From the IMG/VR virus record IMGVR_UViG_3300036851_000411, positions 1-64,000 of that record: a stretch of DNA of 64,000 nucleotides; one strand, 5' to 3'. Positions 110 through 21,721 of this stretch are shown here, piece after piece. The number at the start of each line of letters is the position of its first letter. Positions within the stretch are counted from its first letter, which is position 1. The position numbers and the translations under genes were made by a program. This DNA is from a virus. The notes below the pieces were generated by a model, which did no database searches, was not told the origin of the DNA, and saw only the letters and a program-made list of their open reading frames with translations.

Positions 110-183
110 CGGGACGTAGCGCAGCCCGGTAGCGCACCTGAATGGGGTTCAGGGGGTCGCGGGTTCAAATCCCGCCGTCCCGA
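110..183 (+). tRNA. tRNA-Pro(GGG), host; probable prophage attachment site
   Basis: Cloverleaf CGGGACG...CGTCCCG-A; anticodon arm CCTGA-ATGGGGT-TCAGG; T-loop GTTCAAATC; CCA not encoded. Phage-type genes start directly downstream. Confidence 0.95.
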
Positions 184-205
184 TAGAATCGTAAGCATGG
201 AAGTC

Positions 206-2293: not shown

Positions 2294-2523
2294 ACGCCGA
2301 GAACGCGCCGACCCGCCACACGATGACCATCGTGCGCACCGAGCAGGTGAACTACGCGCACGTCCGCGTCGAGTTGTCTGGCGCTGAGCCCTGTACGCTC
2401 GTCCCACCGACCGGCGCGACGCGGCTCGATCTCACCGTTCCGAACCGTGAGGCTCCAGCGTTCCCGATCGGCGCACGGTTCACGGTCACCATCGAGCCTG
2501 ACCTGGCGGAGCCGTTGCCATGA
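2290..2523 (+). CDS. Hypothetical protein
   Basis: Coupled ORF in the operon. Confidence 0.55.
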   Translation: MNAENAPTRHTMTIVRTEQVNYAHVRVELSGAEPCTLVPPTGATRLDLTVPNREAPAFPIGARFTVTIEPDLAEPLP

Positions 2524-2885
2524 GCCGCGGCGTCAATCCGTGGCAGAGCGACCCGGCCGCCGTCTCCTACACCGACGACAGCGACGGCCGCACGCCGCTC
2601 CCCGTGCCACCTGAAGCGCCGCGGCGCGGGGATCTCGTGCGACGGCTGGACCGGAATATCTGGCAAGTCATCGAGACGAGCGGACACAGCCCGCAGTTCG
2701 GGGTCTGGCAGGTGTCGCTCGCGTTCGTGAGCGGGAAGGCCGCACTCCCGGTCACCAACGGGCCTGAGCATCCGATCCTGTGGGTGGCGCGCGCGCCGAC
2801 GGACGATCGGCTGCACCACTGGCAGGAGGCGTACGGCTACGTCGCCTACGATCCCGGGACGGGCGAGGAGGCATCCCATGCCTAA
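2520..2885 (+). CDS. Hypothetical protein
   Basis: Coupled ORF in the operon. Confidence 0.55.
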   Translation: MSRGVNPWQSDPAAVSYTDDSDGRTPLPVPPEAPRRGDLVRRLDRNIWQVIETSGHSPQFGVWQVSLAFVSGKAALPVTNGPEHPILWVARAPTDDRLHHWQEAYGYVAYDPGTGEEASHA

Positions 2886-5494: not shown

Positions 5495-5959
5495 GTGGCC
5501 AATCACAGCGAACGGCGAGAGCAGGCACGTGCCCGCGAGCAACTCGCCGAGATCGTGGCCCGGCGCAAGGGCGACATCCGTGACTACCTGCGCGTCCACG
5601 ACCGTGGCCGAGAGGCGATCGAGGTCCTGAGCGAACCCGAGAACGCGGCGATACGTGTGGGATCGTGGCTGACCGATGTATTTCGTCGCGGCAACGCTGG
5701 GGCGTACGCCGAATGTGAGACAATCCTCGCGATGCTGACGTTGCTCAGCGATGCCGAGGGCGATCGGATCGACCTGGCGAGCGCGCTGCTCTCGTTAGGA
5801 ATCGGACCTGACCCGCGGTTCGGCGTCGAGGCGATCGACATCGCCGCCATCGGGCGCATGGGCGACCGGCCATTCAGCGCGCCGGCCGCGCGTCCGCTCA
5901 CCATCGAGGAAGCCGACGCGGTGATCGCCGCATGGCGGGAGGCAACCCGTGGACGCTGA
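5495..5959 (+). CDS. Hypothetical protein
   Basis: GTG start after GGAGG. Confidence 0.55.
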   Translation: MANHSERREQARAREQLAEIVARRKGDIRDYLRVHDRGREAIEVLSEPENAAIRVGSWLTDVFRRGNAGAYAECETILAMLTLLSDAEGDRIDLASALLSLGIGPDPRFGVEAIDIAAIGRMGDRPFSAPAARPLTIEEADAVIAAWREATRGR

Positions 5960-20541: not shown

Positions 20542-20786
20542 CGATGGCCCCGCGGCTCTCGCCCGAGATGCACGCTCGGATCATCGCCGAATTGCGACGG
20601 CGGCTCCAGAGCGCGATCGAGCGAGCGGCGCGCGAGGGGTGCGACACGCCGGTGATCCACATGAGCGCCGAGCGGCGATGTGGCGCGGTGGGCGTCGACG
20701 AGGAAGGGCATTGCCTGCGGTGCGGCCTCGTGCCTCCCGAAGAGGACACCGAGACCGAGTGCCCACCGGGCTTCTTCGACAGTTAG
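20538..20786 (+). CDS. Small Cys-rich protein
   Basis: ATGA coupling; HCLRCG...ECPPGF. Confidence 0.5.
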   Translation: MTMAPRLSPEMHARIIAELRRRLQSAIERAAREGCDTPVIHMSAERRCGAVGVDEEGHCLRCGLVPPEEDTETECPPGFFDS

Positions 20787-20918
20787 AAGGCTGTGCGGCA
20801 ACGCTCAGACGGCTGTGCGGCGACGGAACGGCAGCGCCACGAGTCAGAGCCGGCATGTACGGGCAATGCCAAGCCGTACAAGGCGTTACGCGAGGTGTGG
20901 TGTCACACGCTCGTACAC

Positions 20919-20986
20919 TGTTGCAACACGTGTTGCACACAATGTTGCACAAAGTGATGTGAAACATATTTCACATGCATGCAACA
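20919..20986. repeat. TGTTGCA repeats and palindromes
   Basis: TGTTGCA at 20919, 20931 and 20943 (12-bp period), inverted copy at 20980; palindromes TGCAACACGTGTTGCA and ATGTGAAA-N4-TTTCACAT. Confidence 0.8.
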
Positions 20987-20997
20987 CCGTGTATAAT
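20969..20997 (+). promoter_or_regulatory. sigma70-like promoter antisense to the phage tRNA
   Basis: TTTCAC-17-TATAAT. Confidence 0.5.
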
Positions 20998-21038
20998 CAA
21001 CGGTGGGTGGCGGCCGAATCATTCAGTCGTCACTCGGA

Positions 21039-21133
21039 AGGAGCGTGGGGGATTCGAACCCTCGGCCCGGTGCGCTAACACCGGACGCCTCATTGATAGT
21101 GAGGTGCTTTCAGCCAGACTCAGCCAACGCTCC
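21039..21133 (-). tRNA. Type II (Ser-like body) tRNA with AUC anticodon
   Basis: GGAGCGT/ACGCTCC acceptor; D arm GCTGAGTCTGGCTGAAAGC; CCTCA-CTATCAA-TGAGG anticodon arm; 8-bp variable stem; GAGGG-TTCGAAT-CCCCC T arm. Confidence 0.85.
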
Positions 21134-21243
21134 GCCTTCAGGAACTCGGGCCGGTCGAGGGATCACTCCTTCGGCCGGTTCGTGCATCTACCACCGTCGC
21201 TCACGAACATTTGAAGGGCTGGGCGACAGGTGGCGGCACAAGC

Positions 21244-21272
21244 ATGCTAATACATAGTGTGGATCTTCGCAA
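21244..21272 (-). promoter_or_regulatory. sigma70-like promoter for the phage tRNA
   Basis: TTGCGA-17-TAGCAT on the minus strand, about 110 nt upstream of the tRNA. Confidence 0.5.
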
Positions 21273-21492
21273 AGCGTACAAATGAACGGGTGACAAACCT
21301 AACCGTCATGAATGCAACGTGTTACAACCCATTCACCGGCCGGCGCTAGAAGTCGTTGTCACGCGTTGGGTTGTTTCATCTCGCCACCCCAGTATAGGTG
21401 CCGCCGCAAGCGCGCGGTATTGACGCTAGCGTCAGATAGATAGACTACTGGTGCGACGACGAGCCGCTTCTCTGAAGAAGTGGGCTTAGGCG

Positions 21493-21518
21493 TTATCCAC
21501 ATTGTTTCACGTGAAACG
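21493..21518. promoter_or_regulatory. DnaA box plus parS
   Basis: TTATCCACA (21493-21501), then TGTTTCACGTGAAACG (21503-21518; 15/16 match to the parS consensus). Confidence 0.75.
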
Positions 21519-21552
21519 TTCATAACTCCACGCTGGAGACCCGGCGGATCTA

Positions 21553-21581
21553 TTGCGGATTATGCTTTAATCACATAATCT
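21553..21581 (+). promoter_or_regulatory. Class I promoter/operator upstream of the packaging operon
   Basis: TTGCGG-17-TAATCT enclosing TATGCTTTAATCACATA. Confidence 0.65.
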
Positions 21582-21721
21582 GAGCGCGCACCTGGCGACC
21601 GCCACGGTGCGCGCGCTGCGTTCGGGCACCTCGCCGAGGCAGTGCGCTCCGGACACGACGCCCCCGGCTCCCACGAGTGCGGGGGCGTCGATGGCCTCTA
21701 CTCGGTCTGGTGGAGCGGCGC

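Follow-up and report, generated by a model that had tools for sequence, protein, structure and literature searches.

The described systems closest to the tRNA gene considered here are the allo-tRNAs (Mukai et al. 2017, Nucleic Acids Res 45:2776, PMC5389517; reviewed in PMC7609411), which are of serine type, carry a long variable arm and have either G73 or U73. By definition, they possess a 12-bp acceptor branch, arranged 8/4 or 9/3, along with features like those of tRNA-Sec (PMC5389517, PMC7609411). Their anticodons span 35 codons, with GUC (Asp) among the three commonest (PMC5389517, PMC7609411); the literature under this name already includes tRNAs of serine type with Asp anticodons (PMC5389517). 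In E. coli, serine insertion at leucine codons has been shown for some allo-tRNAs; others, located near toxin-antitoxin genes, are inactive (PMC5389517, PMC7609411). Anticodon variants of tRNA-Ser that mistranslate have been described as well, namely Candida tRNA-Ser(CAG), human tRNA-Ser(AAA) and yeast tRNA-Ser(UGG) (reviewed in PMC11415595). Here, we analyze a phage-borne tRNA gene with the anticodon AUC and compare it with these systems.

The window, by which we mean the whole stretch of DNA that was analyzed (64,000 nt), covers positions 1 to 64,000 of IMG/VR record IMGVR_UViG_3300036851_000411, an 82,133-nt virus contig of 66.5% GC from a soil metagenome, estimated to be ~90% complete. A 44-bp direct repeat, which matches the 3′ part of a host tRNA gene, points to a ~68.9-kb prophage integrated at tRNA-Pro(GGG) (Table 1). 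This supports the lysogen as a setting, in which, according to a first-pass annotation of the sequence, the tRNA may be expressed. That annotation also placed the tRNA opposite to the lytic genes, and indeed nearly all genes lie on the plus strand, the window tRNA being among very few features on the minus strand. A Mom-like protein and a DNA-repair protein of the RadC type are encoded to its left; genes on its right specify a phage metallopeptidase, a DUF2280 protein and the large terminase. Among the ORFs neighboring the tRNA, none matched a toxin-antitoxin, nuclease or other known protein family. The only other tRNA on the contig is tRNA-Pro. Searches of the contig for a class II synthetase core, and for a cytidine/adenosine-deaminase fold that could make I34, found neither.

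Several other features of the region were recorded. Just beyond attR, a tyrosine integrase is encoded whose Pfam match is clear; this suggests that a second element may be integrated in tandem at tRNA-Pro(GGG); inside the prophage, a 499-aa ORF gives a weak integrase signal. The window tRNA cannot be read as an attP relic, as the att site is tRNA-Pro. In the low-GC island around the tRNA, no other Rfam family matched, and two plus-strand ORFs of 79 and 84 aa that overlap the tRNA seem to be spurious. The right-hand part of the island contains a promoter-like stretch (TTGACG...TAGACT), a DnaA-box-like site (TTATCCACA) and a parS-like palindrome (TGTTTCACGTGAAAC(G)), and, situated between the early and packaging genes, may control replication or partition. 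Two 19-nt direct repeats (AGAAGGCTGTGCGGCAACG and AGACGGCTGTGCGGCGACG) are found just 3′ of the last small plus-strand ORF.

Table 1. Positions of features on the prophage contig and of tRNA loci on other contigs. Numbers without a contig name count from the first letter of the window.
Feature	Position	Strand	Basis
Host tRNA-Pro(GGG) (110-183) and attL (142-185)	110-185	+	ARAGORN; repeat search
Two 19-nt direct repeats, 22 nt apart	20785-20825		
Low-GC (49-56%) non-coding island, ~750 nt, with tRNA, both promoters, DnaA-box-like site and parS-like palindrome	20850-21600	.	sequence
Operator-like repeats around plus-strand promoter	20919-20992	.	sequence
Near-consensus sigma-70-type promoter, TTCACA-16-TATAAT, 11/12, antisense into tRNA	20970-20997	+	promoter scans
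Class II serine-type tRNA, 95 nt, anticodon AUC, U73, no encoded CCA	21039-21133	-	ARAGORN; Rfam RF00005; Ser vs Leu model
Variable arm: 9-bp stem (7 Watson-Crick, 2 G·U), 4-nt loop, flanked by unpaired C44 and C48	21065-21086	-	ARAGORN drawing; thermodynamic fold
Anticodon AUC (GAT on plus strand), loop C32-U33-A34-U35-C36-A37-A38	21095-21097	-	sequence; ARAGORN anticodon position 37
16-bp plus-strand-specific hairpin, just beyond antisense of tRNA	21147-21182	+	shuffle test
Weak promoter-like site on tRNA strand, TTGCGA-17-TAGCAT, 8/12	21244-21272	-	custom scan
Possible replication or partition control region	21420-21520		
499-aa ORF with weak integrase signal	contig 64963-66462		
attR, 44-bp direct repeat matching attL (3′ part of tRNA-Pro)	contig 69046-69089, outside window		
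Tyrosine integrase	contig 70524-71762	-	Pfam
U73 tRNA-Ser (CGA)	L138:1111-1200		
U73 tRNA-Ser (GCU, UGA)	L139:542-628, 637-723; L150:118-299		
U73 tRNA-Ser (UGA)	L152:517-604		
Asn/Gln tRNA with serine-type D arm	L036:8042-8128	-	
Asn/Gln tRNAs with serine-type D arm	L092:2276-2362, 5714-5800	-	
Asn/Gln tRNA with serine-type D arm	L115:670-760	+	
'tRNA-Ile(TAT)', 92 nt	L055:1429-1520	+	ARAGORN
A34 tRNAs (Asn ATT, His ATG)	L004:2260-2330, 2507-2579	-	

The window tRNA is a genuine, intact tRNA gene. ARAGORN and Rfam give exactly the same coordinates, and the RF00005 match runs end to end at 48.6 bits (gathering score 29, E 2.4e-07). The acceptor stem consists of seven perfect base pairs (GGAGCGU/ACGCUCC), followed by U73. 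The D arm has a 3-bp stem (G10-C25, C11-G24, U12-A23), a G13·A22 pair and a loop with 20a/20b. The anticodon stem contains 5 bp and its loop 7 nt, the variable region is 24 nt long, and the 5-bp T stem has a single mismatch, A50·C64, together with a standard T loop. Thermodynamic folding alone recovers the acceptor, anticodon and variable arms. Most of this agrees with the first-pass annotation, which had described a minus-strand cloverleaf with a perfect 7-bp acceptor stem, U73, a Ser-like D loop, the anticodon loop CU-AUC-AA and one A-C mismatch in the T stem; its variable-arm stem of 8 bp proved to be one pair too short. CCA is absent from the gene, which we do not regard as a defect because the host tRNA-Pro gene lacks it too. 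An alternative 8/4 fold fails at U8·C65, which cannot pair, and both ARAGORN and Rfam fold the molecule 7/5. Because its branch is 7/5, rather than 8/4 or 9/3, the window tRNA is not a member of the allo-tRNA class.

To which isotype does the body belong? Covariance models were built from 19 tRNA-Ser and 12 tRNA-Leu genes, none of which was picked via the shared D arm. Scoring was Ser versus Leu; five tRNA-Tyr sequences aligned poorly. The window tRNA obtains 58.1 bits from the Ser model and 23.1 bits from the Leu model. The corresponding ranges are 67–87 bits (67–82 for held-out genes) and 31–43 bits for true tRNA-Ser, and 45–60 bits and 84–93 bits for true tRNA-Leu. Hence the Ser-minus-Leu difference of the window tRNA (+35) falls among those of held-out true tRNA-Ser (+25 to +41), as opposed to true tRNA-Leu (−24 to −48), and its Ser-model score lies below that of the true tRNA-Ser genes. 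The 20-nt D arm is found, letter for letter, in 18 metagenome loci and one IMG/VR (viral) locus; wherever a tRNA was called at these loci, it was tRNA-Ser (CGA, UGA or GCU), with an overall identity of 69–75%. The acceptor stem and U73 are identical to those of a tRNA-Ser(GCU) on contig L139, and the T arm is nearly identical to that of phage and bacterial tRNA-Ser genes (e.g. L137 GCU, L139 GCU/UGA, L138 CGA, L140 CGA). These lines of evidence, model scores and homology, bear out the serine-type body claimed for the gene on first reading.

Identity elements tell a similar story. Those of bacterial tRNA-Ser are C72, G2-C71, R4-Y69, C11-G24, a large variable region and G73 (PMC9976931). All except G73 are present in the window tRNA, whose relevant pairs read G1-C72, G2-C71, A3-U70, G4-C69 and C11-G24, and the anticodon is AUC instead of NGA or GCU. 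Bacterial tRNA-Asp has six such elements (G73, G10, G34, U35, C36 and C38; PMC9976931). Three of them are found here (G10, U35 and C36), with U73, A34 and A38 in place of G73, G34 and C38, and the 24-nt variable region replaces the short variable loop of tRNA-Asp. Aspartate identity is thus poorly represented, in keeping with the original description. Overall, the reading of this sequence as a serine body with an Asp anticodon is well supported. Three further isotypes were considered and rejected: tRNA-Sec (8/5 branch, 6-bp D stem, UCA, G73) is ruled out by the 7/5 branch, 3-bp D stem, AUC and U73; tRNA-Leu by U73 in place of A73 and the low Leu-model score; and tRNA-Tyr by U73 in place of A73 and an anticodon other than GUA.

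U73 also replaces G73 in phage-type tRNA-Ser genes that have Ser anticodons, most of which lack an encoded CCA (Table 1). Since U73 recurs in such genes, we view it as a trait of a phage tRNA-Ser lineage and not as a sign of foreign identity. This suggests that the SerRS of the hosts of this lineage may tolerate U73, and the lineage bears on the question of how strictly bacterial SerRS needs G73. In a separate set of tRNAs, 87–91 nt long and encoded on uncultured phage contigs, an Asn (GUU) or Gln (UUG) anticodon is joined to a body with a long variable arm and a D arm of serine type (Table 1). Two of the contigs concerned, L036 and L092, are large (98–254 kb). These tRNAs score 54–66 bits with the Ser model versus 34–37 bits with the Leu model, adjoin ordinary class I Asn/Gln copies and retain G73/A73; they could have dual identity. 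The T stem of one of them (L092:5714-5800), GAGGG/CCCCC with an A·C mismatch, is the same as that of the window tRNA. On contig L055, a tRNA called by ARAGORN as tRNA-Ile(TAT) has a long unstructured variable region and scores only 24 bits with the Ser model; it may be a pseudo-tRNA or carry an insert.

Searches of cultured phages and IMG/VR revealed no homologue of the window tRNA or its phage. The tRNA locus had no blastn match among cultured phages, and an anticodon-arm pattern matched only unrelated Asn, Thr and Ile tRNAs in IMG/VR. A pattern combining the loop and the T loop gave no class II AUC tRNA among the at least 117 loci listed, and stricter Ser-body patterns with an ATC or GTC anticodon returned nothing relevant. 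Synteny was followed through the neighboring metallopeptidase, whose relatives (46–58% identity) have no tRNA at the equivalent site. For the large terminase, there is no IMG/VR relative, and the best cultured-phage match is 33%. In one scan each, the bacterial-genome and metagenome collections yielded only ordinary tRNA-Ser genes and one distant prophage locus without a tRNA. Among public runs, a single DNA run contains this DNA, and no RNA run is listed for it.

Transcription signals on the two strands differ in strength. A consensus promoter scan of the tRNA strand found no promoter. The best minus-strand match upstream is the weak site listed in Table 1, 111 nt from the tRNA 5′ end, and the gene's own candidate promoter, as the first-pass annotation called it, comes down to this site. 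On the plus strand, the near-consensus promoter aims at the tRNA from its 3′ side and is the sole 11/12 match in the 82-kb contig. It is preceded by three copies of TGTTGCA at 12-nt spacing (20919, 20931 and 20943), with the inverted form TGCAACA at 20922 and 20980, and a palindrome, TGTGAAACATATTTCACA (20958-20975), overlaps its −35 element. The hairpin beyond the tRNA reaches −30 kcal/mol on the plus strand (z −4.71, a value attained by 0 of 200 shuffles) and −18.3 kcal/mol on the minus strand (z −0.81); no U tract follows it. Based on this promoter and hairpin, we predict a cis-antisense RNA of ~180 nt, for which the hairpin is the candidate 3′ end, or at least convergent read-through towards the packaging genes. 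Transcription of either kind would oppose tRNA expression whenever the promoter is on. On the tRNA strand, we found no mask for the anticodon: pairing between the anticodon arm and the 400-nt flanks does not exceed that of shuffled flanks.

Our preferred reading, which we hold tentatively and with somewhat less than even confidence, is that the window tRNA is a restrained missense tRNA inserting serine at GAU codons; its expression, serylation, decoding and antisense control we infer. A serine-type class II tRNA of 7/5 shape, its anticodon altered to AUC, would thus be carried in the ~69-kb prophage. Recognition by SerRS rests on the long variable arm and the acceptor stem, not on the anticodon; serylation of this tRNA by the host enzyme is therefore predicted. 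Given U33, A37 and an anticodon loop of the standard 7 nt, the tRNA is expected to pair with GAU and would thereby place serine at a fraction of Asp GAU codons. Output would probably be kept low or conditional by the weak promoter, by U73, by A50·C64 (a mismatch at a T-stem pair that contributes to EF-Tu binding) and by convergent transcription, with the plus-strand promoter yielding a full-length antisense RNA that would end at the strand-specific hairpin. Among the allo-tRNAs examined by experiment, clear insertion of serine was seen only for a variant with G73 (PMC5389517), a base that the window tRNA does not have. Codon usage is relevant as well. GAT occurs 304 times in phage genes, at a frequency of 16.6 per thousand; it accounts for 29% of Asp codons, and for 31% in early and late genes alike. 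With GAT this common, efficient insertion of serine at GAU would be harmful to proteins of the phage itself. Such usage fits a dampened or conditional activity; it fits constitutive activity poorly.

A more elaborate arrangement, which we consider improbable, would be an RNA-only device for conditional mistranslation, in which the GAU-reading Ser tRNA is neutralized by antisense RNA from the operator-controlled promoter and serves as an addiction, exclusion or stress module. Ser-for-Asp mistranslation would then be on in one state only, for example upon prophage loss, upon superinfection, or in the lysogen.

It is also conceivable, although we think it fairly unlikely, that the tRNA-shaped RNA does not decode at all. 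It could be part of a sense/antisense RNA switch or poison-antidote pair, in which a stable tRNA-like RNA would come from the weak promoter and its antisense from the strong one, or it could be bait for some tRNA-binding factor of host or phage origin. The arrangement of the locus, with an antisense promoter of 11/12 facing a sense promoter of 8/12 and a hairpin (z −4.7) without a U tract, may be that of a cis-antisense-controlled RNA pair like those of type I toxin-antitoxin systems, and the strong antisense promoter, the operator-like repeats around it and the strand specificity of the hairpin would all suit such a function. Likewise, many allo-tRNA(UAU) species are inactive in translation and lie near toxin-antitoxin genes (PMC5389517). 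However, the anticodon loop is competent for decoding (U33, a purine at 37, 7 nt), and the universal tertiary nucleotides and the Ser acceptor elements are all retained, which an RNA that functions by pairing only would not need. The lack of known families among the neighboring ORFs, and of an anti-anticodon mask on the tRNA strand, also weighs against a non-decoding role. As bait, the RNA would be a poor mimic of tRNA-Asp, since it has A34 where tRNA-Asp has G/Q34; for the decoy of anticodon nucleases that was suggested at first, the neighboring ORFs, which match no family, provide no positive evidence.

Alternatively, the gene might be a silent or nearly silent passenger, that is, a disused copy of a phage tRNA-Ser with an altered anticodon, intact only since the change is recent. 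It is a singleton, its own promoter is weak, its T stem has a mismatch, and it stands opposite to all neighboring genes and faces a strong convergent promoter. Despite these points, we rate this explanation as fairly unlikely, given the distribution of differences between the window tRNA and its relatives. In an alignment with 14 Ser relatives on the Ser covariance model (23 modelled pairs), 7–15 of the 23 pairs differ from each relative, yet all but A50·C64 are still standard pairs in the window tRNA; 6–13 of the differing pairs per relative are preserved through changes on both sides. Its anticodon differs from GCU, UGA, CGA and GGA at all three positions, while U33, A37 and A38 are retained, and of 33 stem pairs just one departs from the standard. 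A gene in decay would not be expected to show three altered anticodon bases beside a single weak pair, and neutral drift of a disused gene would not so concentrate changes in the anticodon. This pattern argues against the decaying pseudogene that the first-pass annotation had named as a possible refutation. It suggests that either the structure is under selection or the anticodon change is very recent.

We give little credence to the idea that the window tRNA is a GAU-specialized aspartate tRNA, charged by AspRS despite its long arm and supplementing GAU decoding. U35, C36 and G10 are present, and the GAT share of Asp codons is higher in prophage genes (31%) than right of attR (22%). Moreover, A34 tRNAs for NAU codons occur in phage arrays: contig L004 has two of them, for two-codon boxes, beside normal GTT and GTC genes, and, judging from this array, A34 readers of NAU codons are recurrent in phages. 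Against this, half of the bacterial Asp determinants are missing, namely G73 and the anticodon-loop bases G34 and C38, and homology to tRNA-Ser extends over the whole body. Since AspRS comes at tRNA from the side of the variable loop, an extra arm of 9 bp should clash with it. Finally, we consider it very improbable that the contig is chimeric or that the anticodon reflects an error of assembly or sequencing: although the contig is a single metagenome assembly whose DNA occurs in one run only, the Logan assembly of that run, which is probably the source sample and so argues against an assembly slip rather than providing independent biology, has identical letters on a 13.3-kb contig (depth 11.6, no variant), and three adjacent substitutions are atypical of the read error that had been raised as a concern.

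If the window tRNA is charged with serine and used, it would be a natural missense tRNA of canonical 7/5 shape carried by a temperate phage. The principle of joining a serine body to a foreign anticodon would then not be bound to the 8/4 or 9/3 fold, and phages would be able to import genetically encoded mistranslation into the lysogen. The strong convergent promoter and hairpin also offer a concrete idea of how a potentially toxic tRNA might be restrained at the RNA level.

How does this locus relate to known systems? Phage tRNAs that escape host anticodon nucleases (PMC10264068; for PARIS and retron, PMC11464382, PMC11555353) are likewise phage-encoded and have odd anticodon loops, explained by conflict with host defense. 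Those tRNAs retain their cognate identity and stand in for host tRNAs that have been cleaved, whereas the body and anticodon of the window tRNA are mismatched, and it cannot replace tRNA-Asp. The tRNAProX/ProRSx systems of Streptomyces and Kitasatospora (PMC10404621) also involve genetically encoded bacterial missense tRNAs with a mismatch between anticodon and identity. However, tRNAProX has proline identity and Ala or Thr anticodons, and some have a dedicated synthetase, of which there is none on the window contig. Ordinary phage and bacterial tRNA-Ser genes (L137, L138, L139, L140) are 69–75% identical to the window tRNA, and lengths of 95–97 nt occur among them as well. They carry Ser anticodons, whereas the window tRNA differs at all three anticodon bases and additionally has A50·C64. 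With the mistranslating tRNA-Ser variants (PMC11415595), it shares the principle that SerRS ignores the anticodon, such that an anticodon change makes a missense tRNA. The natural variants have dampening features, for which the candidates here are different ones (U73, A50·C64 and antisense transcription), and the variants are eukaryotic or engineered, whereas the window tRNA is prophage-borne and bacterial. The likeness to allo-tRNAs is broader. Both have a long variable arm, G73 or U73 (here U73) and a non-serine anticodon; phages and soil metagenomes are where both have been found, and toxicity or regulation is suspected in either case. In contrast to the 8/4 or 9/3 branch of allo-tRNAs, the window tRNA has a canonical 7/5 branch; its D arm is that of ordinary tRNA-Ser, its anticodon stem has 5 bp, and its Asp anticodon is AUC (A34) instead of GUC. 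Toxin-antitoxin neighbors are known for some allo-tRNAs, and none was found at this locus, where a full-length cis-antisense RNA is predicted. By analogy, the window tRNA is a candidate for a molecule that works like an allo-tRNA though it lies outside the class.
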